The notes beneath the pieces were generated by a model. It saw nothing but the letters and a program-made list of their open reading frames with translations, was not told the DNA's origin and did no database searches. This document shows, piece by piece, positions 6,001-45,323 of a stretch of DNA of 64,000 bases. Within the stretch, counting starts at the first letter, position 1; every line of letters begins with the position of its first letter. The DNA comes from Ostreococcus lucimarinus (lineage: Eukaryota). The stretch lies in NCBI GenBank assembly GCA_000092065.1, contig CP000586.1. One strand, written 5' to 3'. The position numbers and the translations under genes were made by a program.

Positions 6001-7779
6001 AAGTTGCGGCGGCGCCGCCTTGCCCGGCTGCAATAACGCGAGTTCGTGCCTGCGAAGCGCCTGAATGCGTCGCGCCCAACGAATTAAATCTCTCAACGTA
6101 AAGGGACGACCAGCGTGCACGCGCGCTAACGCATGGTTGACGTCATTCGCTTGAGCTTCTAATCCAGACGCCGCGCGATCGAAGCGCGCGTCGTCGCTCG
6201 TCGCCTCCTGAATGGTGACGTCTTGCTCGGAGATCTCCCCAAGACCGGCGGCCTCGCCCGCGGCCGCGCCGCCTTGACCGCACAAACTTTGCACCTGACG
6301 AACTGTCGCCAGCATTGATTGCGCGAGCGGCGCCAAGTTTGGATACAAGCCGCAAAGAATCGCCGTCGCCTCGTCGCCGCGCGGCGGCTCGACGACGACG
6401 CGCGTCCACAGTCCGGAAAGCGGGTCCGCGCTCGCCGATGTCGACCGTCCGGCCTCGGTGGTGATTGAACCAAACAGTTGAAATCCAGGCGCGGCCTGAA
6501 TGCTCTCGCCGCGCCCCGGGACGTAAAGCCTGCGCTTCTCTAAAAGCGGCACCAGCGCGGAGAGCACCTCGAACGGCGCGAGATCGACGTCTTCGATGAG
6601 CACCCAGACCCCTCTCGTCACCGCCTGCGTCAACGCTCCGGGCTGCCACTTGAACTCGCCTGGGGCGGCGCCACACACGTACGCGCCGAGTAATGACTTC
6701 GAATCAGTTTGCGCGTCCAAGTGCAGGGTGACGAAATCGCCGTTGCCTGTCACGCGCGCCACCTCCTCGAGCGCGGCGGATTTTCCGCAACCGGCGGGAC
6801 CTTCGAGCAAGACGGGTCGGTTTCGGCAGAGCGCCAACGCGACGGCGGCGAGATTCCGGCGTGCGCTTTCGGTGTAAATCATCGGCGGCTTTTGTTCGCG
6901 CCCACTCGAACTCGCGTCGTCGGCGCCGCGCCGCCGTAACTCGACGCCGCCGACGCGCACGTATCCTTTCGCGGGCGCGGCGAAGTCGTCGACTCGGGAT
7001 AAATCCGCGGCGCCCAGAAAGTCCTCGTCGTCCGCGCCTGCGGACTCGCCGCTCGCTCGGACGCGCCCCGGATGTAACCAAAACATCGCGCGCGCGTTCG
7101 CAAACTCTAAATTTCGCGCCTCTCTCCGCGCTCCGTACTCGTGAAACGCCTCGTCGTCGCGCGTCGTCGCGCGACGCATCGCGTCCAACCCCTTCGCGCT
7201 CACCCCCAGCGCGAGCGCCACGAGCGCGCACGCGTTATACCTCACCTCATCGCTCTCCGCGCGCAACCACCTCGTCGCGGACGACCAATCGAACCTCTCC
7301 CGCGTCGACGGACACGCGCGCCAAATCGCCTCCAACGCTCGCGTCGCCGCGCTCGTCTCGCTCGCCTCCATCCCTCGCGTCTTCGCGTGCACCGCGCCCA
7401 CGACCCCATCGAACGCCCCCCGCGTCAAAATCTCCTCGCACGCCCTCGCGCAGTGCGGCAGCAGCTCGCACGCGACGCCCAGCGCCACGCACGTCGTCGC
7501 CGCGTCCCGCTCGCCGCGCGCGCTCGCGTCGCCCGCGTCGCCCGCCGCGGCCAGCATCCGCGCTCGCGCCGCCGACGCCGCCGCCATCGTCGTCCGCGGG
7601 CGCAGCACCGCGTCCAAGACGTCCGCGTCCGTCGCCCTCGACGCGTCGATCGCCCCGCGCGCGTCGTCGCGTCGCGCGTCGTCGTCGTCGCGCCTCTTCT
7701 CGCCGCCGCCGCCGTCGTCGTCGCGCGTCGTCGCGTCGTCCCCGCGTCGCGCGCGCGCGTCGCGACGCCGCGTCGACAT
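1..7779 (-). CDS. MDN1: Midasin (MDN1/Rea1) AAA+ ATPase, N-terminal tandem AAA ring region. Partial: the 3' end lies beyond the window start. Proposed structure: exons 7779..4585, 4356..4029 and 3744..1.
   Basis: Repeated AAA modules on the minus strand: VLLEGPAGCGKS, VLLVGETGTGKT, ILLQGPTSSGKTSLVEYLA, and LVFQEGALVQAVRKGYWVVLDELNLAP near 3660-3740. The ENANLCSPTVLDRLNPLLE module sits near 200-330, so the frame is open to position 1. The 7857 start of the ORF track is GTG; the first ATG is at 7779. Frame changes at ~4430 and ~3770-3880 are explained by two GT-AG introns. Confidence 0.85.
3745..4028 (-). other. Predicted spliceosomal intron 2 of midasin: 284 nt, phase 1, donor ACAG|GTGCGT, acceptor CTTTCTTCCACTCGCAG|GT.
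   Basis: The exon ends ...HEHTDLQEYLGTYVTDETG. After the intron the frame gives (G)QLVFQEGALVQAVRKGYWVVLDELNLAP, reconstituting the conserved midasin AAA3 motif. The unspliced ORF reads through into a non-homologous tail and a stop at 3883. Confidence 0.6.
4357..4584 (-). other. Predicted spliceosomal intron 1 of midasin: 228 nt, phase 0, donor AAG|GTACGC, acceptor TTCGCATTCGCAG|GCT.
   Basis: The upstream exon ends ...KHLLRGAALK and the ORF then runs into a stop at 4441. The downstream frame resumes with AMKTPPNPPAGDTHVLLEHFWVEAGDLP...LLQGPTSSGKTSLVEY. The boundaries are canonical and a pyrimidine tract precedes the acceptor. Confidence 0.55.
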
Positions 7780-8134
7780 CGCGACGCGCGCGCGCCCGCG
7801 AACGATCGCGCGTCCGACGCCGTTCGCCGCGACGCGCTCGCGCGCGCGCGAATGCACGCCTCGGAAGCGCGGTCGTTCGGTCGTTCGCGGTCGAGCGCGC
7901 GCGCGCCCGTAACAAAAACGAAATCATCGGCGTTCGCGTCGGCGGAGAGGCGACCGCGCGGTCGGGACGTCGCGATCCAGCGGGCGCGCGCACTGCGTCG
8001 ATGTCGTTCTATTTTCGCGCGCGGTCGAGCGCGCCGACGCGTCGAGTTCGCCGTCGCGCATGCATTCGTTCGCGCGCGCGCATTCATTCACTCCGTCTGT
8101 TCGTCTCGCGACGACGGACGGCCGCGACGGGGCC

Positions 8135-10772: not shown

Positions 10773-10800
10773 TTTGAACAAGAATGTTCTAGATTCTAGC

Positions 10801-15336: not shown

Positions 15337-16674
15337 TCAATCGTCGCCTTCGTCGTCTTCGTCTCTCGCGCGTCGATTCCACCAAAACAGCACAAAGTTT
15401 GCGACGACGTATCTCGCGTCGATCGAAATGTTCGTCGTACACTTTGTGAAGAGCACGAAAAGCGCGGTCTGGTAGAGCGCTGCCGCCGTGCGATCGCTCG
15501 ATCGAAGTCGATGACAACACCGCTCGAAGACAACGCCCGCGGTGTTCGCTCCGAAGAAAACAAACCATGCCTTGGACTTCAAGCCGTGAAAGAGCAGAGA
15601 AAACGCCATGACGACGACAACGGAAATCACGCTCGATCCCAGTGGGCGGTAGAGTAAACGCACGAACGCCTCGTGCAGACTGCAGTGAAACTTTCTCCAA
15701 AACGTACCGAACGACGTTCCCGACTTTAGCCAATCGACGCTGACGTCGCGAATGACAACCTGACCGTCGATGACGGCCAGCGCGTGACTAAGATTGAAGA
15801 TCAACGTTGGCCCGGCCCACATCGCCGTCGTGTGCGTCCACGCGTGTGATATCTTTTCAAAGAGCGACGCGTTGGCGACGTCGGCGAAAGGATCGTAATA
15901 CGTCCGATGCGCAAACTCGAGTAACGCGTACCACGTCAAGGAGTCTACGGTCTCCAACGCCGCGTACAACCACCGCCGTCGATCGTGATCACACCGGTGT
16001 CGCTCGAACTCTCTGTAAAAGCAGAAAGGTCCCTTCGCTCTCAGAGGCGGGTACAGCACGTATCTCACGAATTTTCCGAGGTCTGGCGTCGCCGACTCCT
16101 CGACGCACTCTACGCCGAAACACATGACGCGCAGCAAATCGAAGCGACACGCGCGGTAACAGTTGAACGTCGTCGCGTTCATAATTCCGACGCGCGCGAC
16201 GTCCCCCGGTTCGCTTTCCAATTCATCCAAGACCAGATACGCCAAGACGCACGCGACCCAGACGTACGTGCGTTTCCGCCGCGCGCTAAACGGTGCCGCG
16301 CGCACCGCCACCGCGAACGCGTAAAACGCGCACACGAACGCCAGCACCCCGATCGTCCACCGCGCGCCGTGCGCCATCATCGCGACCGCGATCGCCATCG
16401 CCGTCGCCGCGCGTCGTCCGCGTCGTCCCGCGCCGACGTACGCCGCCGTCGACGCCACCTCCCACGCCAACGGCCCGCCCTCGACGTACTCGAACACGCG
16501 CGCGTGAAACGTCCACCGCCGTCCGATCCGATCGTCATCGCGCGCGCGCGCGCCGCCGCGCGTCGTCCGCGCCAACGTCGCCGCGCACGCCGCCGCCGCG
16601 CACCACCGCGCGTTCGCCGTCCACCCGAACCGATCGCGTCGTCGTCGTCGCCGCGGTCCGTCGTCGCGATCCAT
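15337..16674 (-). CDS. MBOAT-family membrane-bound O-acyltransferase.
   Basis: Multi-pass hydrophobic protein. MBOAT signatures: VLYPPLRAKGPFCFYREFE (the ...AGPI.RY.E.. region) and FWRKFHCSLHEAFVRLLYRPLGS (the WRRWHISL..W.RDY.Y.PLGG region with the invariant His). The 16698 start of the ORF track is GTG; the first ATG is at 16674. Confidence 0.65.
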   Translation of the reverse strand: MDRDDGPRRRRRRDRFGWTANARWCAAAACAATLARTTRGGARARDDDRIGRRWTFHARVFEYVEGGPLAWEVASTAAYVGAGRRGRRAATAMAIAVAMMAHGARWTIGVLAFVCAFYAFAVAVRAAPFSARRKRTYVWVACVLAYLVLDELESEPGDVARVGIMNATTFNCYRACRFDLLRVMCFGVECVEESATPDLGKFVRYVLYPPLRAKGPFCFYREFERHRCDHDRRRWLYAALETVDSLTWYALLEFAHRTYYDPFADVANASLFEKISHAWTHTTAMWAGPTLIFNLSHALAVIDGQVVIRDVSVDWLKSGTSFGTFWRKFHCSLHEAFVRLLYRPLGSSVISVVVVMAFSLLFHGLKSKAWFVFFGANTAGVVFERCCHRLRSSDRTAAALYQTALFVLFTKCTTNISIDARYVVANFVLFWWNRRARDEDDEGDD

Positions 16675-16869
16675 CGCGCGTCGTCGGGTCGCGGTCACCG
16701 TCGCGCGCCGTCGCGCGCGCTCGGCGTCGCGCGGTGACGCGTCGCGCGCGTCGAGCCGTCGCGTCGACGCCGAGCCGTCGCGTCAAACCCAAAAACGACG
16801 ATTCGCGTCCCAGGGCCGCGATCGCGCGCGATCGATCGGGGCGTCTTATCCGTCCCGCACATCGGCGCG

Positions 16870-23026: not shown

Positions 23027-23224
23027 TCTGAGATTTGATTCGTAGAGACGTCGTCTCGACGGCGTCGGTATAACACGTTTGTAGTAGATCTGTACGCGTC
23101 TCGCTCGCGCCGTCCTCGCTCGGAGGGTTTAGGCCTCGCTGGCTGCCCGCTTATCCATCATCGCATCTTGTCGCCCGTCGCCCGCTTCGCGCGCGCACTT
23201 CGCGTCGCTCGCGGTCTCGACGCG

Positions 23225-24013
23225 ATGTTCGCGCGCACGACGTCCACGCCCGCCGCCCTCGCGCGCGCGACGCCTCGCGCTTCGCGCGCCGCGCCGCGCA
23301 CCGCCGCCGCGCGCCCGTCGTCGTCATCGATCGCGCGCGTCGGCGTCGCCGCGCGCGCGCCTCGCGCGGTGCGCGCGCCGACCGCGCGCGCCGACCGAAC
23401 CGCCGTCGTCTCGCGCGGCTTGTTCGACGGCGATAAGGACGAAGGCGGCACCGCGACGGCGCGCGTGAGCACGGACGCGGTGATGATCGACCCGGTGGTC
23501 GGCGCGAAACGCTTCAGCAACTACTTCTGGGCGGGCGTCGTCACCGCGGGCAGCACGGGATTCCTGCTCACCGGCGCGTCGGCGTACCTGCACCACAACC
23601 TGGTGTTTTTCCTCGACGCGACGGACATCAAGTTCTTCCCGCAGGGATTGGTGATGTCGTTTTACGGCGTCGCCGGCGCGATGCTCGCGACGTATCTCTG
23701 GTTGACGATTTCCTGGGACGTCGGCGCCGGATACAACGAATTCAACAAGGATGAGGGAATCATGCGAATTTTCCGCTACGGGTTCCCGGGGAAGAATCGT
23801 CGGGTGAATCTGGTGAGCGATCTCGCCGACGTGCAGGCGGTTCGCGTGGAGATCAGCGAGGGCGTCAACCCGCGGCGCGTGGTGTACGTTCGATGCAAGG
23901 GCAAGCGCGACATCCCGCTCACCCGCATCGGGCAACCGCTGACGCTGGCGGAGGTGGAGCAGCGCGCGGCGGATTTGGCCAAGTTTTTGCAGGTTCCGAT
24001 CGAGGGTCTTTGA
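23225..24013 (+). CDS. ycf4: Photosystem I assembly protein Ycf4, nuclear-encoded with a chloroplast transit peptide.
   Basis: The C-terminal 180 aa is highly Ycf4-like: KRFSNYFWAGVVTAGSTGFLLTGASAYL...FFPQGLVMSFYGVAGAMLATYLWLTISWDVGAGYNEFNKDEGIMRIFRYGFPGKNRRV...VQAVRVEISEGVNPRRVVYV...IPLTRIGQPLTLAEVEQRAADLAKFLQVPIEGL. It is preceded by ~85 aa of Ala/Arg/Ser/Thr-rich presequence beginning MFARTTSTP. The 23168 start of the ORF track is TTG; the first ATG is at 23225. Confidence 0.85.
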   Translation: MFARTTSTPAALARATPRASRAAPRTAAARPSSSSIARVGVAARAPRAVRAPTARADRTAVVSRGLFDGDKDEGGTATARVSTDAVMIDPVVGAKRFSNYFWAGVVTAGSTGFLLTGASAYLHHNLVFFLDATDIKFFPQGLVMSFYGVAGAMLATYLWLTISWDVGAGYNEFNKDEGIMRIFRYGFPGKNRRVNLVSDLADVQAVRVEISEGVNPRRVVYVRCKGKRDIPLTRIGQPLTLAEVEQRAADLAKFLQVPIEGL

Positions 24014-26272: not shown

Positions 26273-27619
26273 TTAATCGTACTCCACACCGGCGAACGCG
26301 AGGCCCAAAGCCGGTGCGGGCGGAGCCGCGGCCCGACGCTCGCGCGACCGGGCGATTCTGAGCAGGACGTCGTCGTCGCCGGCGAAGACGGCGGCTTCGC
26401 GAATCGTCGTGGCGACGAGACAGCGAATCAACTTGCGCAAGAAACGGTCTGCGACGAGCTCGATGACGATGACTTCGTCGGCGTCGATGTCGGTGATGTC
26501 GATGGTGTCGTCGTGAGCGTCGTTTCGGCTTTTCGAGCGCCGAACGCCGGCGGTGACTTTGGAGTCGTTGTCGCTGTCGGCGCCGTCGCCGGGCGGCGAA
26601 GGCAATTTCGCCTCGAACGCCCTCGCGACGCGAAACGTGACGACGGAACTCTTCCCAGGCGGCGTGCCTCGCGCGAAGGCGTGCATATCGATCGGCGCGT
26701 TCGCGCACTCGCGCACGAGCGCGGCTAAGATTCGATCGATGATGCGCGCGTCCAAATCAGCCTTCGGCGTGCGCGACTCGCGAAACGCCTGATTCTTCGG
26801 CAAGCAATACACGTACCGTCGACTCTTCGCCGCGAATGTCGCGTGAAACGCCGAGCCCGTCTCGCGCACGTCCGACACGCGCAACAGACCCGCTTTGCCC
26901 GGCGCTGAATCCTCATTCACCAACCGCTCAATCTCCGCCGCGGAGATGGCGTCCGACTTGCTCCAAAGCGATACGCAGCTGGCGAGCGCGCTCACGCCGC
27001 GATCCGTCCTCCCCGCCGACGGCGTCGGGCGCGTCTTATCCAACACCGGTCGCAGCGCCAACTGCAACGCCGCCGACACCGACGCGCACCCCGGCTCGAA
27101 CGTCCCGTCGTACGCGAAATCCCTCGACGCGTTCCACGCGAAGCCCGCGAACGACGGCCCGTGATACGTACACTTCGCCGCGAACGTCCTTCGTCCTTCC
27201 CTGCGTCTTCGCCCCCCGCTCGCGCCCGCGTCGTCGCCGCTCGCGAACACGATTTCCGCCGCGCTCAATCCGAGCTCGCGCAGGCACGCGTCGCCTCGCA
27301 CGCACCGCCTGAAGAATCGCTCGACGCCGCGCCACGGCCTGTCGTCCGCGAACGCGCTCTGCTGCACCGGGTCCCAGCGCCCGACGTTGAACTCGCATCC
27401 GGCCGTCGCGCCGTCGTCGAGGACCAGGGTTTGACACGGATGTCGCGTCGCGACGCGCGCGTCGTCGCTCGCGTTCGCGTCGCTCGCGTCGCTCGCCCGC
27501 GACGTCGCGCCGACCGGCGGCGGGACGCGCGCGGTCGCCATCGACCCGCGACGCGCGCGCGCGCGCGCGGCGCGCGCGCGCGACGTTCGAGACGCTCGCG
27601 CGACGCGCGCGAGACGCAT
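26273..27619 (-). CDS. tRNA pseudouridine synthase, TruA/PUS1 family.
   Basis: The catalytic motif AGRTDRGVSALASCVSL matches the RTD.GVHA consensus. ...AKSRRYVYCL matches the ..R.Y.Y motif. The N-terminal KCTYHGPSFAGFAW matches the Y.G..F.G.Q-type start. The start is ATG. Confidence 0.6.
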   Translation of the reverse strand: MRLARVARASRTSRARAARARARRGSMATARVPPPVGATSRASDASDANASDDARVATRHPCQTLVLDDGATAGCEFNVGRWDPVQQSAFADDRPWRGVERFFRRCVRGDACLRELGLSAAEIVFASGDDAGASGGRRRREGRRTFAAKCTYHGPSFAGFAWNASRDFAYDGTFEPGCASVSAALQLALRPVLDKTRPTPSAGRTDRGVSALASCVSLWSKSDAISAAEIERLVNEDSAPGKAGLLRVSDVRETGSAFHATFAAKSRRYVYCLPKNQAFRESRTPKADLDARIIDRILAALVRECANAPIDMHAFARGTPPGKSSVVTFRVARAFEAKLPSPPGDGADSDNDSKVTAGVRRSKSRNDAHDDTIDITDIDADEVIVIELVADRFLRKLIRCLVATTIREAAVFAGDDDVLLRIARSRERRAAAPPAPALGLAFAGVEYD

Positions 27620-27716
27620 GCGCGCGCGCGAGGACGCGCGGGCGCGGCGTCGCGCGCCGATGTGCGACCGCGCGCGCGTCCCGGTCGTTCGCTAACGGTC
27701 GTCACTCGACGCCGCG

Positions 27717-28172
27717 ATGCGCGACGCCGACGCCGCGAGCGACGGCGACGACGGCGCGAGCGCGTCGGAAGAGTCGGACTCTTCGTCCTCGGGCGCGCTC
27801 GGGGACGTGGGCGCGCGCGAGCGCGATGAATTCTTCGACGAGGGCGCGGATGCGGCGGACGAGCGCGCCGTCGTTCGCGCGCTCGGTGGCGCCGACGCGG
27901 CGACGACGGACGCGCGCCTGTCCTGCCCGGGGTGCTTCGCGCTGGTGTGCGTGCTGTGTCAGCGACACGAGCGGTACAAGGGGCAGTACCGCGCGGTGTT
28001 CGCGCGAGGGGTGGAGACGTCGACGACGAGCTGTCTGCGGCCGACGGACGACGACGGCGACGGCGCGGACGAAAGGTACAGGGAGGTGACGTGCGCGCAG
28101 TGTGGGACCGTAGTCGCGGTGCAGGATGATGATGACGTGTATCATTTCTTTAACGTGTTCAGCGCGGGGTGA
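27717..28172 (+). CDS. Small acidic protein with a C-terminal Cys/His motif resembling the E2F-associated phosphoprotein (EAPP) C-terminal domain.
   Basis: The motif LSCPGCFALVCVLCQRHERYKGQYRAVFARGV...VTCAQCGTVV is present. It follows an Asp/Glu/Ser-rich N-terminus. The start is ATG. Confidence 0.45.
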   Translation: MRDADAASDGDDGASASEESDSSSSGALGDVGARERDEFFDEGADAADERAVVRALGGADAATTDARLSCPGCFALVCVLCQRHERYKGQYRAVFARGVETSTTSCLRPTDDDGDGADERYREVTCAQCGTVVAVQDDDDVYHFFNVFSAG

Positions 28173-28296
28173 TGGTGAGTGATGGGATCGACGACGCGAA
28201 CGCGGCGGGACGGGACGGCTGCTATTTACGTCGTCGCCGAGTAAATTTCTCGTCGCGAGACGTCATTCGTGCGCGCGCGACGAAAACGGCGCGACC

Positions 28297-29931
28297 ATGC
28301 GGAAACGTGCTGACGTCGGTGGATCGATGGCGTACGAGACGATGACACCGGCGTCGCACGGTGAGGGCGAGGACGACGCGACGGCGACGAGCGAGTCAAA
28401 CGCTTTGACCAACGGGATTTTCAAAAGCGGAGATACACGTAAACACGCGCGCGCGGAGACGCCACCGACGCTTCGGGATGCTGCGTGGGACTGGATAAGC
28501 GTACAAGCATGCATCGTCGCAGGCATCATCGTGATAACTGGCTACTTTTCCTTCATATCCACCGGTACGTGGCGCAAGTGCGTGAAATCTCTCGACGTAG
28601 ACCTGCGTGATGCTTCGGGGCGAGAAGAAGTCATTCGAACGTTTCTACGCTGCACTTTCGCGCGCGAACGAGGTAAAAACTATCGACCGTGGCGAATGGG
28701 TGACTTTTCCGTGCTCTTCGTGCGGCTGTCGACGATCACATTTTACGGCGAGGTGATTTTTCACCAGATGAGCGCGTGGCACGTCTCAAAATATCGTAAG
28801 TGGCGCACAAAGTTCGCCGTGCAATCGTTCGCGCAAATGTACATCGTTTACTTTGTCATGATATCGATTTTGGGGTATCACTCGACATATTCTCACATTG
28901 TCGTCCTGAACTCCTTTAGTGCGCTCTTCCTTTGCGGTGCGACGGCGAAGGAGTTTTGGAACACAAAAGGTTTGAGTTGGTTCTGGACGTACTTTTTTGG
29001 ACCTGGCATCATCGGTAGGCCAGTGGTTGAATTCTTCCTCGTCATCGTCGCCGATCCGAACGTTAGCGCGCCTCTCAAGCTCGCCGTGCGGTTCATTTTT
29101 CTGCCCTTACTGTGGGAAACTTTTCGCGGTTTTGAAAGGCACTTCACGAGGTTGAATCCGTCTCCTGGGCCGTGCCTTAATCTTCCGTATTTCATCTCTA
29201 GCACGCTCCAGGAGTCCTTCGTCTCGAGGTATGTGATGTTTCTGCTCTCTGCGGGCGGTGCGGTGAAAAGCATGGCAACCGTGCAGGCGATACTGGCTTT
29301 ACACGAACTCATGATGAACGTCGTGCAGAAGGATCGAGACGTGCACTTGGTTAAGTTATTCCTCGGAAAACAGTCCGCGGAAGCTCTGCTCGTGTCGCGC
29401 AAGCAGCACGATATCGTTGCCTTAAACTCAATCGTCTCTTCATTCGCAGAGATTTGTGCAATCATCGTGATTTCTCTGTACTTGTATGTCTTTCGCATGG
29501 CGAGCGAAGGCAACGAGGACGTCGTCGACTTGAAGGCGTACGGTGTGCAGGCGATAAACTTGATAGCGATCGAAATGGTGCTTTCGTTCTTCATCATGTA
29601 CGTTCAGCAACGGTTCCACGGTATACGACACGGCGATGTTTTCCCTAAAGGGTATTTTTTACGCAAGGGAAGATGGCTCGCCGTGAGCTATAAATTCGTC
29701 GTTTTTCTGTGGATCACCGCCATGATGGCGCACAAGGTGACAATTTATCTCGTTGGTAATCAGTTCCACAAGTACCTGTGCCCGCGTATCAACGATGATG
29801 GGAGCGTCTTCACCTTTCAATGTTCGACAGAGGATTACAAACTCGCGCCAGGAGGGTTTTACTACAACTCGGAGGCGTGGTTGATTCAACAGTACGACTA
29901 TCCCGTCGCCGTTTTGTCGGACAAGGGGTAG
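28297..29931 (+). CDS. Hypothetical multi-pass membrane protein, ~10-12 predicted TM helices, no recognisable family. It is encoded at markedly lower GC than its neighbours.
   Basis: ATG-initiated 544-aa ORF, rich in F/I/L/Y/W hydrophobic stretches: FVMISILGYHSTYSHIVVLNSFSALFL, WFWTYFFGPGIIG, AIIVISLYLYVF. No conserved catalytic motif was recognised. Local GC is roughly 50% against 65-75% around it. Confidence 0.5.
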   Translation: MRKRADVGGSMAYETMTPASHGEGEDDATATSESNALTNGIFKSGDTRKHARAETPPTLRDAAWDWISVQACIVAGIIVITGYFSFISTGTWRKCVKSLDVDLRDASGREEVIRTFLRCTFARERGKNYRPWRMGDFSVLFVRLSTITFYGEVIFHQMSAWHVSKYRKWRTKFAVQSFAQMYIVYFVMISILGYHSTYSHIVVLNSFSALFLCGATAKEFWNTKGLSWFWTYFFGPGIIGRPVVEFFLVIVADPNVSAPLKLAVRFIFLPLLWETFRGFERHFTRLNPSPGPCLNLPYFISSTLQESFVSRYVMFLLSAGGAVKSMATVQAILALHELMMNVVQKDRDVHLVKLFLGKQSAEALLVSRKQHDIVALNSIVSSFAEICAIIVISLYLYVFRMASEGNEDVVDLKAYGVQAINLIAIEMVLSFFIMYVQQRFHGIRHGDVFPKGYFLRKGRWLAVSYKFVVFLWITAMMAHKVTIYLVGNQFHKYLCPRINDDGSVFTFQCSTEDYKLAPGGFYYNSEAWLIQQYDYPVAVLSDKG

Positions 29932-30040
29932 TGGCGGTCGCGTGGTTGTTTGTCCGCGAGCTACAAGCGAAACAAACTGTCACAAAGTAGAAGATGTAAT
30001 AGCGATAGGTTTACTGAAACACACCTCCCGATAAAATAGT

Positions 30041-33000
30041 TTACAAATCGCGCGCACTTCTATCCTCGGGTAGCGTGGGTAAAGACAAGCTCTCTAGACT
30101 CACGCCGCGCGAATGCGTCGGAGTGCGATCTTGGCTACTCCGGCGACCTCCTGGGACGTCGGGAAATTGCGTTTCTTTGCCCCAAACATCAGCGAAAGAC
30201 AGTTTACGACGGTGTTTTGGCGCCTTGATCTCCTCCGCTTTCACCGGAGCGATTCCTAAGCTTTCAACGACGACGCCGTGTAAAGTACCACTTCTTCGAG
30301 GCGACTTGAGTTCAACGTCCACTTTTTGGCGAGGCTCGACGCCCTCCTTTTCGCTCTTTCCGCCGGACGACCTCCGGATAGCTGCGTCTCTATCTTGCAC
30401 CTCATCGGCTAAAGTCGGCCTAAAATATCGCATGAACATGATGGACGCAATGTAGGGCCAGATGGAGATGATCGCCACCGGCCAAAACCCGAGCCAGTAT
30501 TTCATCACCTGAGACGTTATCGGTAAAAACGTCTTGTAACTGTAAGTGGAGTAGTACACTTCCGTCTCACTTAACGCCATGTTCAAGATGAACCACAGTA
30601 GGATGGAACCCCATATGACTACGTGATGAAATAAAGTCCAAAAGTTGCACAACAATCCGAGTTGTACGTTCAAAGCGATGAGGAGCGCAGTGTACAAAGT
30701 CGTTCCGACCTCCCACAGCCCAAACGGCTGTCCGCTTTCCGCGTCCGCTTCGCCCGTGTGGATGCCGTAGAAGACCATAACGAAGCTCACAACCGCGACG
30801 TAAATACCGTACGCAAACCAAGTCAAACGACGGCGCGACGTAAACTGTGAGTTCGCCTGTGTTTCTCTGTACAGTTCCGGAACCTCCATCGAACTCTGCG
30901 GTTTCACGTCTTGGTCAAGGATACCGAGCGCTAGTACCGGAAAGTTGGTGAAGAAAATGTTGAACGACGACATCAGCCAATCGTTGTACACAGTCTGTCC
31001 GCTGGCTTTGGTGTGCATGTTGAATATGAAAATAGTCAAACCAAAAGCGATGTTCTTAAAGAAGAAGTACGTCACCATGCGTGCAATTCGCTTGTAATTG
31101 TATCGACCGTGGAGGAGAAGAAGGCGCTCCAAGAAGCGGAACTGGGCAAATGCGAAATCCGACGCCATGACTGCTTGCATACCCTCTTGGCCACTGATGC
31201 CGACACCGATGTGAGCGGCTTGAATCATCCCGACATCGTTCGCACCGTCACCGATAGCGAGCGTGATGCGTCCAGAATCCTTCACGAGAGTCGTCACGAG
31301 CGCCTTTTGTAAAGGCGACACGCGGCAGCAAATAACCGCGCTGCACTTGGTTCCCAGGGCTAGGAAGCTTCCGGCGAGCTCTGGTTTGAGAGCCAGCGTG
31401 AGCGAACGACCGTCGATAACCATACCGACGTCGGCGTCGAGCTGAATCGCGGCTTCGGCGTCTACTAAACCAGCTTCAATCTGCTGCTTCACTGAGGCCA
31501 TGGCGAGGCGTTGAAATGTCGCGCTGTCGATCTCGCCGTTGTTTTCTTGTTTAACCAAATCTTCGACGTTGATGACGCGGACCTTCATTTGCGGAGTGAT
31601 GAGCGAGCACGCTTGCCCGATGTTTATCGCAGTATCTTGCTTGTCACCGGTGAGTACCCAAACTGCGATGTTTGCCTTCATGAGTTGTTCAATGGTACGC
31701 GGTACGCCGACTTGCAATTTGTCTTCAATCGCAGTCGAGCCCAACAGCGTGAGGTCTTTCTCGATGAGATTCGCCACCTCTTCCAGTTTCTCTTCACGAT
31801 TTTGGAGAGCTTGGCTCGCCTCGATGAACTTTTCATTCCACGAAGCGTACTCAGAAGGGTTGATGACTCGACGCGCGAGGCACAACGTGCGCAAACCGCA
31901 CTTTGCCCACGCATCCATGTGCTCCTGGGTCGCATCCTTGAATTCATTGCCGTTCTGAGACAGTCGCTCATAAATGACGTTGTCGGCACCCTTGGTGAAG
32001 AGAAGGATACGTCCATCGTTTTTGCTCTTCACGATGACGCTCATGCGCTTTCGAGCCGACGTGAACTCCAGCGTGTTGAGAATGGTGTACGTCACGTCCT
32101 CCGTCCCCGGTCGCCCGTCATTGAATGCTTCTTCCTCAACCGTGATTGTCGTTGCCGAACGATGCTTGAAGAAGAAGCCGAAGCGCTTTGCCGCGACGAC
32201 GAACGCAAGTTCATCCGGGCTCTCCGCCTGATAAACGATTTCAGACGGGACAGGATTTCCTTCAGGAATAACCGTTTGACAAATGCCGAGTACACGGAAA
32301 AAACCGCGACAAATGTCAGCGTCTGATCTCTTATGCCACGCTCCGTTCTCAAGTCGCTTATCGCGGAAATTGAACGATGGCTCGATTGCGTCACCATTTT
32401 TTGGTGGCAACGGCTCGCCCTTGCGCTGCATGATGGCTCGTTCTATCTCCGTCACACCCTCGCCGTACGCGACGCCAGCGATCGAGCACTTGAAGAACTC
32501 CATCGTGTTGCACGTCAGGGTACCAGTCTTATCACTCAGCACGGTGTGTACCATACCGAGCTCTTCATTCAGGTTGGTCGTTCTCGCGAGCGCGGGAGTG
32601 TCCGTCTCTTCGTGGTACATCGCTCGATCCTTGTTCAGGAAGACAAATCCTTGGAAAACCTTCACCAACTCCAAAGAAACGTAAAGAGAGATTGGAATAA
32701 GATAGCCGTATAGGACGTAGGACGTGAAAAAGGCAATAACACCAACGCTGGTTCTGTTATCCGGATTGAACGTAACATCCTGTAAGTGCACGGCCAAGTA
32801 CCAATGGTCCTTCGCGCCGCTACCAATCCAGGCGGAGCAATAAATCGCCGAGGCCGTGCTCATAACGAACAGCGCTATCAACATGGTGATGACGACCCCA
32901 TCCATTTGCTTTTCGAGGTGCGAGCGCTTAGACGGGGTATCCGTGGCGTTCATCATAACCTTTGAATCGTGTCCAGTGTACACGCACACGCCGACGATCC

Positions 33001-33814
33001 ATTCCGTGTTGCGAAGACTTGAACCTCGCAGCAACATATTTGAAGGATTAAGCGAGACTTTCTTACCGTTCGGGTACAACGGCGCGCCGATGGACAAGTT
33101 TCCAGAGTACGTGTACAAAGAGTTGTTTGGATGCTCGCATTCGATGAACGTCTTTCCCTCGGACATCTTCGCAAACGTTTCGCGATCAAACTTCAAGTCC
33201 GCGACGTCAACCGAACGCTTGGTTTTCAAGTTTGTTTCCCCGTCCAAGTTCTTCGTCTCGACGTAACACGCGTTTTCGTCACTCGAGCTATCGAGCATGA
33301 TGAGGTCGCAAGGGAAAAACTGGTCTCGCACCACGCGCACGATGTTGCCGACCTTCAAGTCGTGCCACTCGCAGTTCTCAAACGACTCCCCGTTAAATCG
33401 TTCAGTCGTCGACGTGTTTTGGACGCGATCTTGCACGTGTCTCTTGTAATCTTCTACCGCTTCCTTAGCCAGCGACAGCCCAATCACCATAGTCAAGGGC
33501 GTCCACGTCGTGTACGGCTGGATCGGCGAGACGGTCGGAAAGAGCGAAATCACCGCCACGGACAAGAAATACAGGTTCGCCACCCGACGAAACTGTTCGT
33601 ACAGCCCCTTCGGCGCGAAAGTCACGACATTGTACTTCCCCGTGCAGATGGAATTATCCTTACACTTAAACTCCTTCGCCAAATCCTTCCCGTCGTTCGG
33701 TTCGCCCGCGCCGAGCACCAATTTGCGCGCCGTCGGCTTTGCCCTTTTCCGTCGCAAACGTTCGACCATCGTCGGCCTGCGCTCCAGCGCCGCCGCTGCG
33801 GTCGTCGGCGCCAT
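30041..33814 (-). CDS. P4-type ATPase, a phospholipid flippase of the ALA/Drs2 family.
   Basis: P-type motifs DKTGTLTCNTMEF (phosphorylation site), TGDKQDTAINIG and GDGANDVGMIQAAHIGVGISG are present. The P4 N-terminal GKYNVVTFAPKGLYEQFRRVANLYFL is also present. The 34189 start of the ORF track would overlap the upstream PreP gene; the first plausible ATG (MAPTTAAAALERRP) is at 33814. Confidence 0.85.
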   Translation of the reverse strand: MAPTTAAAALERRPTMVERLRRKRAKPTARKLVLGAGEPNDGKDLAKEFKCKDNSICTGKYNVVTFAPKGLYEQFRRVANLYFLSVAVISLFPTVSPIQPYTTWTPLTMVIGLSLAKEAVEDYKRHVQDRVQNTSTTERFNGESFENCEWHDLKVGNIVRVVRDQFFPCDLIMLDSSSDENACYVETKNLDGETNLKTKRSVDVADLKFDRETFAKMSEGKTFIECEHPNNSLYTYSGNLSIGAPLYPNGKKVSLNPSNMLLRGSSLRNTEWIVGVCVYTGHDSKVMMNATDTPSKRSHLEKQMDGVVITMLIALFVMSTASAIYCSAWIGSGAKDHWYLAVHLQDVTFNPDNRTSVGVIAFFTSYVLYGYLIPISLYVSLELVKVFQGFVFLNKDRAMYHEETDTPALARTTNLNEELGMVHTVLSDKTGTLTCNTMEFFKCSIAGVAYGEGVTEIERAIMQRKGEPLPPKNGDAIEPSFNFRDKRLENGAWHKRSDADICRGFFRVLGICQTVIPEGNPVPSEIVYQAESPDELAFVVAAKRFGFFFKHRSATTITVEEEAFNDGRPGTEDVTYTILNTLEFTSARKRMSVIVKSKNDGRILLFTKGADNVIYERLSQNGNEFKDATQEHMDAWAKCGLRTLCLARRVINPSEYASWNEKFIEASQALQNREEKLEEVANLIEKDLTLLGSTAIEDKLQVGVPRTIEQLMKANIAVWVLTGDKQDTAINIGQACSLITPQMKVRVINVEDLVKQENNGEIDSATFQRLAMASVKQQIEAGLVDAEAAIQLDADVGMVIDGRSLTLALKPELAGSFLALGTKCSAVICCRVSPLQKALVTTLVKDSGRITLAIGDGANDVGMIQAAHIGVGISGQEGMQAVMASDFAFAQFRFLERLLLLHGRYNYKRIARMVTYFFFKNIAFGLTIFIFNMHTKASGQTVYNDWLMSSFNIFFTNFPVLALGILDQDVKPQSSMEVPELYRETQANSQFTSRRRLTWFAYGIYVAVVSFVMVFYGIHTGEADAESGQPFGLWEVGTTLYTALLIALNVQLGLLCNFWTLFHHVVIWGSILLWFILNMALSETEVYYSTYSYKTFLPITSQVMKYWLGFWPVAIISIWPYIASIMFMRYFRPTLADEVQDRDAAIRRSSGGKSEKEGVEPRQKVDVELKSPRRSGTLHGVVVESLGIAPVKAEEIKAPKHRRKLSFADVWGKETQFPDVPGGRRSSQDRTPTHSRGVSLESLSLPTLPEDRSARDL

Positions 33815-39457: not shown

Positions 39458-39587
39458 CGGTCAATCAATAAAAGTTGTAGTTTAACCATTCGCGCCCAAA
39501 GTCAACCATCGACAAGGGAAGAGGAACTGACTTTTTCGAGTCAACGAGGGTCCTTCGTCTCGCGCGTAAGACGCCACCTCACGCCTG

Positions 39588-40196
39588 ATGACGTACTGCG
39601 AGTGTTGCGGAGAACAAATTTCGCACATCCCTCGTCCGCGAAAAACACGCGCGAAAAACACGCGCGAGGACGCGTACGTCGCGTTGCCGCGCGACGAGGA
39701 TTATCACATGAGCGGCTATGAATTGAACGACGCCGAAAAAGCGCTTGAGTCTGCGGTGCGCGAGGCGCTCATGGACACGGTGCACCCCAAAGGAGTCGCC
39801 ATGAATCGAGCGCTAGTGACTCTGACGGTGTTCAAGTTTGTGCCGCACCCGCGCGTCGGGCGTTCGTTCAAGGTCGACTGCACACTAGACGCTACCACCG
39901 GAGCGCTGGTCATCCAAAACTTTACGAGACGGAATTTCCTGAAGCTCGCGAGCGATTACGGGAGATTAGATTTTGGACAGACGGCGGTGATCATACGCAC
40001 ATTTTACGCGACGAAAAAGGGCGATCGAGGAATGCCGTACAAGCGCGTGCGCGGCTTCGTCATGTGGTCGAAAGGGCGGAGGCGGCCGGACGGTTCGCGA
40101 GACGTAGCTTTCGGACGAGCGTCCAAGGCGGAGTTAATCGCGTCGTACGCCATGGACCCTCCACCCCCAGCCGAGCGCGTCGAGTTCATCGGCTGA
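39588..40196 (+). CDS. Hypothetical small protein. The real start may be the internal ATG at 39708 (MSGYELND...).
   Basis: ATG-initiated ORF. The first 40 codons have UTR-like composition and a repeated cgcgaaaaacacgcg motif. Downstream the sequence is non-repetitive and protein-like. It is convergent with the small minus-strand gene ending at 40273. Confidence 0.35.
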   Translation: MTYCECCGEQISHIPRPRKTRAKNTREDAYVALPRDEDYHMSGYELNDAEKALESAVREALMDTVHPKGVAMNRALVTLTVFKFVPHPRVGRSFKVDCTLDATTGALVIQNFTRRNFLKLASDYGRLDFGQTAVIIRTFYATKKGDRGMPYKRVRGFVMWSKGRRRPDGSRDVAFGRASKAELIASYAMDPPPPAERVEFIG

Positions 40197-40272
40197 TTTT
40201 TAATGTCACGAAATAAGACTCGCCGACTCGATAAATATTACACGCGAAGACGACGGATGCGCCGTAGACGCG

Positions 40273-40791
40273 TCAATCTTCAGATTCCTCTGCGCCCTTT
40301 TCGGCGATGCGTTGATTTTCCTTGATCCTATCCATGAGCTTATCCGCGATCCCGTCCTTCCAATCTCCACTCTCCACCTTCTTCACCTCCACGACTTCGC
40401 CGTTTTCGTCCAACTCCATCTCGCGCTCCAACGACTTCGCCACGCCGAGCACGCTCTTCCCCATCACCGCCGCCGTCACCACGTCCGCGAGCACCAAAAT
40501 CACCCCAAGCTTCCCAAACTTCGTCGCCGTCTTCCCCACGTCCGCCGGTTCGCGCTCTTCGTCCGTCGTCGTCGTCGCCTTTTCCTTCGCCGTCTCGCGT
40601 CTCTTCTCCGCCGCCTCGCGTCGCCACGACTCCGACCCCGCCGCCGCGTCTCCCTTCGCCGACGCCTTGATGATCTCCACGAGATCGACGTCTTCGTCGA
40701 ACGTCGACTGCATCAACCAATCGATCGGCTGGCCCGCCGCGTCGGCGCGCCGCGGCGCCGTCACCGCGAGCGCGCCCGCGAGCGCAATCAT
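40273..40791 (-). CDS. Hypothetical small single-TM protein of 172 aa with a presequence-like N-terminus. It is a divergent partner of Twinkle.
   Basis: This is the C-terminal part of the 457-aa ORF of the ORF track, whose N-terminal part is antisense junk over Twinkle. The first ATG (MIALAGALAV...) is at 40791, confirmed as cat on the plus strand at 40789-40791. The TM segment is FGKLGVILVLADVVTAAVMGKSVLGVA. The tail is charged (DWKDGIADKLMDRIKENQRIAEKGAEESED). Confidence 0.4.
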   Translation of the reverse strand: MIALAGALAVTAPRRADAAGQPIDWLMQSTFDEDVDLVEIIKASAKGDAAAGSESWRREAAEKRRETAKEKATTTTDEEREPADVGKTATKFGKLGVILVLADVVTAAVMGKSVLGVAKSLEREMELDENGEVVEVKKVESGDWKDGIADKLMDRIKENQRIAEKGAEESED

Positions 40792-40987
40792 CGTCTCGCG
40801 CCGTCCCGTCGCGTCGCACCTCGCGCGCGCGCGCCGTCGCGCGCCGTCGCGCGTCGCGCGCGCACCGCGCGAACGTCGCCGCGTCGCGGTCGCGCCGCTC
40901 GACGCCGTCGCGCGCGTCGCGCGCATGATTTGAATTCGCGCGGGAAAGTGCCGCGCGCGCGACAGTTCGCGACGCGACGACGCGCGC

Positions 40988-43453
40988 ATGCGAAGCGCCG
41001 CGCCGCGATCGACCGAATCGATCGCTGGACGCGCGAGCGCCGGACGCGCGAGCGCGAGCGCGAGCGCGCGCGCGCGCGGACGATCGACGATTCGAAGCGA
41101 ACAATCCATCGATTGCGCGCGACCGATGCGACGCGCGGTGGCGCGCGCGGTGCGAACGACGCGGTGCGACGCGGCGTGGACGATCGGCGGGACGACGGCG
41201 AGTCGGAGTCGAGGGGGAGCGGCGCGCGAGGTGCGGACGGCGGCGAGCGGATGGCCCGGGGACGGCGCGAACGGGACGGGTGGCGCGGGCGACGCGAAGC
41301 CAAAGGGCGCGAGCGTGCAGTGGTTGCGCTCGGGACAAGCGCCGACGCCGGGATCTGGGGGCGCGCGACCGACGCAAGGGCAAGGGATGATGCGAGGGCA
41401 GCCGATGGCGCCGCCGGCGCAGCGGGGACAGCCGGGACCGCCGCCGCCGCCGAGAGGCGCGGCGCCGGCGAACGGCGGACGTCCGCCGGCGAACGGCGGG
41501 GCGCAGAGGCCGCAGAGCGCGGGACAGAAGCCGCAGGGTAACGTAAATGGAGGTTCGGCGACGACGGCGCATTTCAGCACGCCCGCGCCGGTGGTGCATC
41601 GATCGAAGCCGGACGCCGAGGGCGAGTACGCGCAGCAAGGAAGCACGGGACCGCCCGGTTTGCGCGACGCGCTGATGGATCACCGCATCGTGCTGCAGAG
41701 CTACACCCCGGGTCAGCATCGAATCATTTGCCCGACGTGCAACGGTGGGTCCACGGGCGAGCGCTCGCTGGCCGTGCACGTAGAGGATGATGGGAAGAGC
41801 GCGGCGTGGATGTGCCATCGAGCCAACTGCGAGTGGTCTGGTGGCACTGGTATGGATGGGCGCACGCGCGCGTCCAAGGGCGCGGACGGCGCGACATCGA
41901 ACAGACGTGTGGCGAAACCCAAGTTGCCGGCGCCGGAGGACTTGCAGCGCATCGGACCGGGAGAAATGACGGCGGCGGCGACGAAGTGGGCGGAGATGCT
42001 CAAGTCGCGCGGCATCTCGCTCGAAACCGCCGAACGCAACGGTTTGGCGGTACAGAGTGTGTACTCCCCCATCGCGAGTGGTTACGTCGATGCTTTGTGC
42101 TTTCCGTACATGCGTGACGGAGAGTTGATCAACATCAAGTACCGCGGTCCGGACAAGACGTTTTGGCAAGTCAAGGGCGCCGAAAAGATCTTGTACGGCT
42201 TGGACGACGTGACTGGTGAAGAGGAAGTTATTCTCGTCGAAGGCGAGATGGATAAACTGGCGCTCGAAGAGGCAGGCTTTAAGAATGTGGTCTCGGTTCC
42301 GGACGGTGCGCCGGGCAAAGTGAAGGACGGCCCGACGCCTGCGCCCGAGGAGGACAAAAAGTACGAGTACCTTTGGAATTGTCGCGCGCAGCTCGACACG
42401 ATTTCTCGATTCGTCATCGCCACCGATTCCGATGGGCCAGGTCAGGCGCTTTCGGAGGAGCTCGCGCGACGCCTCGGGAAAGAGCGCTGCTGGCGCGTCA
42501 CCTGGCCCGAAGGCTGCAAGGATGCCAACGAAGCGCTTCAGAAAGAGGGCGCCGACGTCGTGCGCGAGTGCCTCACCACGGCTGAGGGCTTCCCTCTGCG
42601 AGGATTGTTTAGATTTTCCGAATTCGCGCCCGAAATTGAGTCGTATTTCAACATGACCACCGCGAACGAGCTTCGTGGCGTGTCTACGGGGTGGCGCAAC
42701 ATCGACAACAACTACAGAATCGTCCCGGGCGAGCTCACAGTCGTCACCGGCGTGCCGAATAGCGGTAAGTCAGAGTGGGTGGATGCGTTGATGTGCAATT
42801 TAGCGGTTCAGCACGGCTGGTCGTTCGCGCTTTGTTCTCTCGAAAACAAAGTGCACGAACACGCGAGAAAGTTGGTGGAGAAATACGTGGGAGAACCTTG
42901 GTTCGAAGGAAAATATTCGAAAGCGCCGCGAATGAATCCGGATACGATGCGCTCCGGGATGAAGTGGTTGAACGAGCATTTCGTGCTCATTCGTCACGAA
43001 GACGACGAACTTCCTAGTGTGGATTGGATCTTAGGATTGGCGCGCGCCGCGGTGTTGCGTCACGGCATCCGTGGGCTCTTGATCGACCCTTACAACGAGC
43101 TTGATCACAAGCGTCCCACGGGCCAAACGGAAACCGAGTACGTGTCGCAAATGCTCACTCGAATCAAACGGTTCGCTCAGCACTACGACGTCCACGTCTG
43201 GTTTGTCGCCCACCCGCGTCAGTTACACAACTGGAAAGGCGAAGCCCCGGGTCTGTACGACATCTCCGGCTCGGCGCACTTCATCAACAAGTGCGACAAT
43301 GGCATCGTCGTCCACCGTAATCGCGACGAAAAGCTCGGATCGCTTCGTGAGGTGACGATTAACGTTCAAAAAGTTAGAAATAAAGTCGCTGGCTCTATCG
43401 GCGACCCAAAACTCGAGTACAACGTCTCCAACGGTCGTTACGTCGACATCTAG
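40988..43453 (+). CDS. TWINKLE: Twinkle-type organellar DNA primase-helicase: zinc-finger plus TOPRIM primase, then a DnaB/gp4-like helicase.
   Basis: The primase zinc finger is CPTCNGGSTGERSLAVH...WMCHRANCEWSGG. A TOPRIM-like region is ILVEGEMDKLALEEAGFKNVVSVPDGA. The helicase Walker A is TGVPNSGKSEWVDAL and DnaB-like motifs include HVWFVAHPRQ. The N-terminus is long, low-complexity and presequence-like. Confidence 0.8.
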   Translation: MRSAAPRSTESIAGRASAGRASASASARARGRSTIRSEQSIDCARPMRRAVARAVRTTRCDAAWTIGGTTASRSRGGAAREVRTAASGWPGDGANGTGGAGDAKPKGASVQWLRSGQAPTPGSGGARPTQGQGMMRGQPMAPPAQRGQPGPPPPPRGAAPANGGRPPANGGAQRPQSAGQKPQGNVNGGSATTAHFSTPAPVVHRSKPDAEGEYAQQGSTGPPGLRDALMDHRIVLQSYTPGQHRIICPTCNGGSTGERSLAVHVEDDGKSAAWMCHRANCEWSGGTGMDGRTRASKGADGATSNRRVAKPKLPAPEDLQRIGPGEMTAAATKWAEMLKSRGISLETAERNGLAVQSVYSPIASGYVDALCFPYMRDGELINIKYRGPDKTFWQVKGAEKILYGLDDVTGEEEVILVEGEMDKLALEEAGFKNVVSVPDGAPGKVKDGPTPAPEEDKKYEYLWNCRAQLDTISRFVIATDSDGPGQALSEELARRLGKERCWRVTWPEGCKDANEALQKEGADVVRECLTTAEGFPLRGLFRFSEFAPEIESYFNMTTANELRGVSTGWRNIDNNYRIVPGELTVVTGVPNSGKSEWVDALMCNLAVQHGWSFALCSLENKVHEHARKLVEKYVGEPWFEGKYSKAPRMNPDTMRSGMKWLNEHFVLIRHEDDELPSVDWILGLARAAVLRHGIRGLLIDPYNELDHKRPTGQTETEYVSQMLTRIKRFAQHYDVHVWFVAHPRQLHNWKGEAPGLYDISGSAHFINKCDNGIVVHRNRDEKLGSLREVTINVQKVRNKVAGSIGDPKLEYNVSNGRYVDI

Positions 43454-45267: not shown

Positions 45268-45323
45268 TGTTTTATCGTTAGAACTTCTTGTACAATACGA
45301 GCGAAAGAGTTGCAGACCATTCA

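Follow-up and report, generated by a model that had tools for sequence, protein, structure and literature searches.

A low-GC membrane-protein gene of Ostreococcus lucimarinus with the features of a resident, vertically inherited gene

In a 64-kb stretch of DNA from Ostreococcus lucimarinus (contig CP000586.1 of assembly GCA_000092065.1; the whole stretch is hereafter called the window), a gene for a multi-pass membrane protein of 544 amino acids (aa) stands in a pocket of low guanine-cytosine (GC) content. We consider it likely that this gene, hereafter the target, is a resident, vertically inherited nuclear gene of a Bathycoccaceae prasinophyte, and that its low GC results from a hydrophobic protein together with weak codon bias. 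The pocket is real but ordinary, being the product of a conserved hydrophobic protein, weak codon bias and a GC-poor convergent neighbor. It is also not specific to the target. The real feature is a block of 5.3 kb and two genes, the second of which encodes a P4-ATPase (phospholipid flippase) and lies tail to tail with the first (Table 1). An earlier examination of the letters alone (the sequence-only reading) had called the target an orphan and had proposed amino-acid composition, horizontal acquisition or codon selection for high expression as possible causes of its low GC.

The description of the target as a multi-pass protein of 544 aa was confirmed. Its open reading frame (ORF) is uninterrupted, and about ten long helices were found in a confident structural model (see below). 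The alignment to 13 homologues was collinear over the whole protein, except in the N-terminal tail, which varies, and at a loop insertion specific to Bathycoccus. About 200 of its columns were invariant, which points to an intronless gene under purifying selection. In databases, an alternative start is used at Met11 (28327), which gives a protein of 534 aa. An antisense ORF of 234 aa (28893-29597, minus strand) had no match in Pfam. Because it lies wholly inside a conserved coding sequence of the sense strand, we treated it as spurious, a by-product of the sense-strand codon pattern.

The target is not an orphan. Among 5.8 billion proteins, 17 homologues were found, which fell into a group with 66–71% identity from other Ostreococcus-like genomes and a group with 47–53% identity from Bathycoccus; the Bathycoccus prasinos protein CAL6397252.1 is a member of a cluster in the latter. 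An exhaustive hidden Markov model (HMM) search of 1.84 billion cluster representatives gave only 28 matches. A full-length relative with about 28% identity (P0076, on a contig with 61% GC) was found by HMM search, and the relatives with 18–20% identity include Mv14757 of Mesostigma viride. Two further word-indexed profile searches revealed no new lineages, although the name Mesostigma viride for a distant relative came from one of them. The clusters of the family hold 100–400 member sequences and are abundant in marine metagenomes. Three distant relatives had a genomic source that could be inspected (the Mesostigma protein, a 7-Mb assembly contig and a gene adjoining Vps35), and all three were eukaryotic. 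Judged from these sequences, the family seems to be small, unannotated and eukaryotic, with members in the Ostreococcus clades, Bathycoccus, a high-GC relative, Mesostigma viride and a few other eukaryotes.

The gene order around the target is also conserved. Orthologues in the same order were found in an Ostreococcus-like genome (L001-L003) and in Bathycoccus (L004 and L005). The series NEPRO, an unknown gene, pseudouridine synthase, Eapp_C and target was kept both in L001, which has 60% GC, and in L004, which has 48% GC. Downstream of the orthologue, the flippase and PreP genes follow in L001 and Ldh_2 follows in L004. The target shared 68.5% and 47.6% identity with its orthologues in these two contigs, as compared with 56–64% and 28–46% for the upstream neighbors.

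For the comparisons of composition, 25 ORFs of the window were taken as genes. The target had the lowest GC among them, 0.519, with 0.505, 0.398 and 0.655 at codon positions 1, 2 and 3 (GC1, GC2 and GC3), and it fell within the lowest 2.7% of all 1635-bp segments of the 64 kb. The sequence-only reading had set a GC of about 50% against surroundings of 65–75%. The first figure is close to ours, but the mean of the window is 61%, and the bodies of other long genes, namely midasin (1-4 kb), SecA and XRN1, have only 52–58%. An abrupt change at both gene boundaries had also been described. On the upstream side the fall is indeed steep, from 0.81 at 27450-27749 to about 0.50 by 28650, within roughly 1 kb. 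On the 3′ side, however, the low GC runs on through the spacer and the flippase gene to about 33.7 kb. Within the block, GC reaches its lowest value, which is also the lowest of the window (0.4997), in a segment (29435-31069) that spans the point where the two 3′ ends meet. The flanks of the block have GC contents of 0.687 (23-28 kb) and 0.623 (34-39 kb).

Compared with all other ORFs pooled, the target falls short in GC by 0.131, 0.084 and 0.092 at the first, second and third codon positions. About 70% of this deficit thus falls on the first two positions and reflects amino-acid composition. Of the causes proposed earlier, this one was supported as the main one. Phenylalanine (7.7% in the target vs 3.3% in the other ORFs), isoleucine (6.4% vs 3.2%), tyrosine (4.6% vs 2.0%) and tryptophan (2.4% vs 1.2%) are in excess, and alanine (7.9% vs 12.9%), arginine (5.7% vs 9.8%) and the two acidic residues together (8.0% vs 14.1%) are scarce. 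Lysine (4.6% vs 4.7%) and asparagine (2.8% vs 2.8%) had been named alongside the first three as enriched, but they occur at the same level as in the other ORFs.

At the third codon position, amino-acid composition does not account for the value observed. From the amino-acid content of the target and the codon usage of the window, a GC3 of 0.754 was expected, and 0.654 was found (z = −5.6); the depression spans almost every amino acid. The sequence-only reading had stated that its observation would be refuted by clear orthologues with similar GC in related algae and by a GC3 equal to that of the neighbors once amino-acid composition was considered. Clear orthologues with similarly low relative GC do exist, but GC3 stays about 10 points under the corrected expectation. 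The flippase (z = −8.1), SecA (−6.5) and XRN1 (−5.4) genes are also below their own expectations, and the atypical composition of the target forms the end of a continuum with flippase, SecA, XRN1 and midasin. Across genes, longer ORFs had a lower GC3 (rho = −0.60, P = 0.0014), and GC3 rose with the GC content of the first two codon positions (GC12; rho = 0.53). In the other genes the first 100 codons have a GC3 of 0.83 and those past codon 600 one of about 0.69; the target is flat at 0.60–0.69, without their 5′ rise.

The codon bias of the target is the weakest in the window. Its effective number of codons (Nc) is 52.8 and its codon adaptation index (CAI), with EF3 as the reference, is 0.408; for comparison, EF3 has an Nc of 35.5 and a GC3 of 0.817. 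In O. tauri, almost all optimal codons end in G or C, and their use increases with expression (PMC3673656). Such a weak bias is therefore a signature of low, not high, expression, and codon bias alone points to a low expression of the target. This bears directly on the proposal that strong translational selection for high expression shaped the unusual codon usage. The departure of GC3 from the amino-acid-corrected expectation is the one observation in its favor, but this departure is toward less bias, lowers GC3 for almost every amino acid, and comes with the lowest CAI of all. We regard selection for high expression as extremely improbable.

In the explanation that we favor, the low GC would have two ordinary causes. 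First, a constrained, hydrophobic and aromatic-rich protein would keep codon positions 1 and 2 low in GC, in a genome pushed GC-ward whose poorly conserved neighbors of the target might have drifted to sequences rich in Ala, Arg, Gly and Asp with 69–71% GC. Second, with weak codon bias, the GC3 of the target would stay at the baseline of about 0.65–0.69 that long genes show in their distal parts, with no 5′ rise. In addition, the target meets the 3′ end of the flippase gene, which is identical to it in composition, and as convergent 3′ ends are the GC-poorest places of this genome, the two genes would merge into one trough of 5.3 kb. The baseline GC3 might be maintained through either expression-linked selection or a local shortage of gene conversion.

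When 23-28 kb was compared with 28-37 kb, we observed that GC was inverse to protein conservation. The neighbors with 69–71% GC, which are rich in Ala and Arg, share little identity with their orthologues (34% for the unknown ORF of 246 aa, 56% for PseudoU and 60% for NEPRO), whereas the conserved neighbors with 53–60% GC share 79% (flippase) and 83% (PreP). Evidence of GC-biased gene conversion (gBGC) in O. lucimarinus has been published (PMC5635611). The inverse pattern fits a GC-ward pressure on the genome, under which unconstrained sequence drifts to high GC. The following points weigh against our explanation. The missing 5′ rise of GC3 in the target has no mechanistic account; the low expression would be deduced solely from codon bias; and another membrane-protein gene of the window, MBOAT (15337-16698), has a GC of 0.62 and a GC3 of 0.76, so a membrane protein need not be encoded by a low-GC gene.

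The low GC3 could also be a regional effect. The block at 28.4-33.7 kb would then be a cold spot of recombination or gene conversion, far from GC-rich divergent promoters and centered on convergent 3′ ends, and expression-linked selection would not be involved. The GC3 values of target and flippase are indeed alike (0.655 and 0.658), and the trough is centered on their junction. Spacer GC varies with gene orientation: all convergent 3′-3′ spacers in the window are GC-poor (0.32–0.52; examples are 10773-10800, 45268-45323 and 29932-30040) and the divergent 5′-5′ spacers are GC-rich (0.62–0.80; 27620-27716 and 16699-16869). The 5′-to-3′ gradient of GC3, the correlation between GC12 and GC3, and the report of gBGC also agree with a regional cause. 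In L001, however, the GC3 of the flippase (0.706) is clearly above that of the target orthologue (0.609), and in Bathycoccus the downstream neighbor is a different gene with a GC3 of 0.76, yet the target orthologue is still the GC-poorest of its locus. These two observations argue for a contribution of the target gene itself. A regional cause of the low GC3 seems unlikely to us. It overlaps with a hydrophobic protein and weak codon bias as the cause, and differs only in what produces the roughly 30% of the deficit at GC3.

If the target had been acquired horizontally in recent times, whether from a prasinovirus, a bacterium or some other eukaryote, its low GC and poor codon adaptation would be the un-ameliorated signature of the donor. 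The target does combine the lowest GC and CAI with the highest Nc among the 25 ORFs, it matches no annotated family, and prasinoviruses are GC-poorer than their hosts (PMC3673656). Nevertheless, the orthologues stand in conserved synteny across Ostreococcus-like and Bathycoccus genomes, and their divergence is the same as or lower than that of the neighboring genes. The composition of the target tracks each host genome, with a GC3 of 0.57 in Bathycoccus, 0.61–0.65 in two Ostreococcus-like genomes and 0.84 in the high-GC relative. The orthologue is the GC-poorest gene of its locus in L001 (0.497 vs 0.54–0.67) and in Bathycoccus (0.458 vs 0.49–0.57). Relatives of the target were found neither in a scan of IMG/VR, nor in a structure search of BFVD, nor among the curated prokaryotic family models of NCBIfam, and the inspectable distant relatives are eukaryotic. 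No best match was foreign; identity decreases from the Ostreococcus clades through Bathycoccus and the high-GC relative to Mesostigma. There is no tRNA anywhere in the window, no Rfam element in 26-35 kb, and no mobile-element signature beside the target, and the compositionally identical neighbor is a core eukaryotic P4-ATPase. Given the synteny, the matched divergence, the host-tracking composition and the lack of viral or prokaryotic relatives in these searches, we rejected horizontal acquisition as the cause of the pocket and consider it very improbable. Had the transfer happened long ago, into the common ancestor, it could not account for the composition seen today.

It was also considered whether the window belongs to a low-GC outlier chromosome region of a Mamiellales genome. 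Such regions are known in Ostreococcus, Micromonas and Bathycoccus (PMC3673656, PMC5635611). The pocket covers only 5.3 kb of a window with a mean GC of 61%, however; its neighbors are ordinary housekeeping genes, synteny is conserved, and the genes appear intronless, with target and flippase each being a single uninterrupted ORF collinear with its orthologues. This explanation has almost no chance of being correct.

The protein itself could be modeled with confidence. An AlphaFold run on 14 close homologues was uninformative, with a predicted local distance difference test score (pLDDT) of 42. With 29 sequences including distant relatives, AlphaFold2 reached a pLDDT of 80.7 (76.7–80.7 over five models) and a predicted template modeling score of 0.81. 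In the model and the alignment, residues 1-58 form a disordered, non-conserved N-terminal tail. The remainder comprises ten long helices (59-96, 134-163, 169-192, 197-216, 225-252, 258-286, 297-319, 368-398, 412-441 and 465-488), a conserved soluble helical insert (326-365) with the motifs HELM...KDRD...LGKQxAEA, and two small beta-hairpins, the last of which is C-terminal and flanked by the invariant Cys495 and Cys509. The positive-inside rule left the topology ambiguous (19 vs 25). No internal repeat was detected when the N-terminal half was compared with the C-terminal half by hhalign.

The sequence-only reading was correct, as far as curated databases are concerned, that no family motif can be recognized. 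Neither the target nor the 29 family members matched Pfam at E values up to 10. The target and these relatives likewise had no match in NCBIfam or among PDB sequences; the latter were searched with single-sequence and profile queries, and the profile gave CP43 alone, at chance level. The Foldseek search with the target model, which had been recommended, revealed no relative in the PDB (best E 0.07, TM-score 0.21 or lower). The target is nevertheless not the only sizeable gene without a family, as had been thought, since four other ORFs of the window also lack a Pfam match (Table 1). Two of them, those of 384 and 246 aa, have syntenic counterparts in related contigs that are NEPRO_N-like or unannotated.

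Several residues suggest a role. P270 and R281 are invariant, and R265, R311 and D348 are at least 90% conserved, even when the relatives with 18–20% identity are included. Charged or polar residues that are invariant within Bathycoccaceae lie in the predicted helices or at their ends (E152/H156/Q157, E245/D253, R265/E274/R281, R311, N377/E385 and N421/E426), a pattern typical of channels and transporters. The N-terminus has no resemblance to a transit peptide. We tentatively suggest, with more doubt than confidence, that the protein works in the manner of a channel or transporter, in the endomembrane system or the plasma membrane. The resemblance to TMEM16/TMEM63 is a lead, and membership is not claimed; the 29 family members gave no match to the Anoctamin, RSN1_7TM or TMC models of Pfam at E up to 10. 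A bolder proposal is that the target founds an undescribed fold family with about ten transmembrane helices, present in early-branching green algae (Mamiellophyceae, Mesostigma) and a few protists and very remotely related to TMEM16/OSCA/TMC, in which case the tail-to-tail flippase would hint at a lipid-handling or ion-conducting role. We think that this is improbable. A functional tie between the target and the adjoining flippase was rejected: the adjacency occurs only in Ostreococcus-like loci, and Ldh_2 is downstream in Bathycoccus, so the arrangement has no functional weight.

Table 1. Coordinates of the target, its surroundings and other ORFs without a family in the 64-kb window
Feature	Coordinates	Strand	Evidence or remark
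Target, coding sequence of a polytopic membrane protein	28297..29931	+	ORF, alignment to 13 homologues, AlphaFold2 model, hydropathy
Low-GC block (target, convergent spacer and flippase coding sequence), GC 0.519, 5.3 kb, two genes	28400..33700	.	Windowed GC
Tandem spacer, 124 bp, GC 0.63, upstream edge of the GC drop	28173..28296	.	Spacer GC
Convergent 3′-3′ spacer, 109 bp, GC 0.45	29932..30040	.	Spacer GC
P4-ATPase (phospholipid flippase) coding sequence, tail to tail with the target, GC 0.530, GC3 0.658	30041..33814	-	Pfam PhoLip_ATPase_N/C
Eapp_C-domain gene, 151 aa, GC 0.70, directly upstream of the target	27717..28172	+	Pfam; adjacency kept in Ostreococcus-like and Bathycoccus loci
ORF of 384 aa	24122-25276		No Pfam match (E ≤ 1e-3 or 1e-5)
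ORF of 246 aa	25397-26137		No Pfam match (E ≤ 1e-3 or 1e-5)
ORF of 563 aa	45324-47015		No Pfam match (E ≤ 1e-3 or 1e-5)
ORF of 968 aa	47405-50311		No Pfam match (E ≤ 1e-3 or 1e-5)

The short tandem spacer in front of the target must carry its promoter and 5′ untranslated region. The mechanically defined ORF of the flippase extends to a TTG at 34189. Its likely start is the ATG at 33814, which gives a protein of 1257 aa, similar to the orthologue of 1247 aa.

Some other observations were made in the window. Ycf4, a photosystem I assembly factor, is normally a plastid gene in plants and in the majority of green algae. In the window, an ORF of nuclear context (23168-24013, plus strand) holds a complete Ycf4 domain (PF02392, E = 9e-77) behind an N-terminal extension of about 100 residues. 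The ORF is also present at 413-1243 of the Ostreococcus-like contig L001, with conserved gene order. As Ycf4 is usually plastid-encoded, this copy looks like a gene that moved to the nucleus and acquired a transit peptide. Midasin (AAA_5 and Midasin AAA lid domains) is divided between two long minus-strand ORFs, 2-3766 and 4441-7857, about 670 bp apart, as might result from an intron, a frameshift or a faulty assembly; a further pocket, with 52–55% GC, is formed by the downstream part of midasin. A stretch of 1.5 kb (39458-40987) has no assigned ORF. The region 40273-42169, with 65–72% GC and long overlapping ORFs on both strands, lies upstream of, and overlaps, an ORF for a Twinkle-like primase-helicase (40988-43453).

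In this compact, GC-driven algal genome, neighboring genes can differ by 20–30 points of GC. These differences go with how constrained and how hydrophobic the protein is, with codon bias, with the place inside a gene and with the orientation of genes. The example warns against inferring horizontal transfer from pockets of deviant GC in prasinophyte genomes. The target also marks a well-conserved, wholly unannotated family of membrane proteins that has a confident predicted structure and no solved structural relative. Functional study of it in O. tauri, which is genetically tractable, would be reasonable.

Among known systems, the TMEM16 (anoctamin)/OSCA-TMEM63/TMC superfamily of channels and scramblases is listed with the closest ones for the protein, which has no sequence match to that superfamily. 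The target resembles horizontally transferred compositional islands in its locally deviant GC and codon usage. Unlike them, it has syntenic orthologues, a composition that follows the host, no foreign best hit and no mobility features. With the low-GC outlier regions of Mamiellales it shares a GC under the genome mean in an Ostreococcus-type genome, but those regions extend over hundreds of kb as against 5 kb here, and the target has ordinary gene content around it and conserved synteny. By codon usage alone, it can be likened to the weakly biased, low-expression genes of O. tauri (Michely et al. 2013, PMC3673656), which also have a high Nc and few optimal codons ending in G or C.

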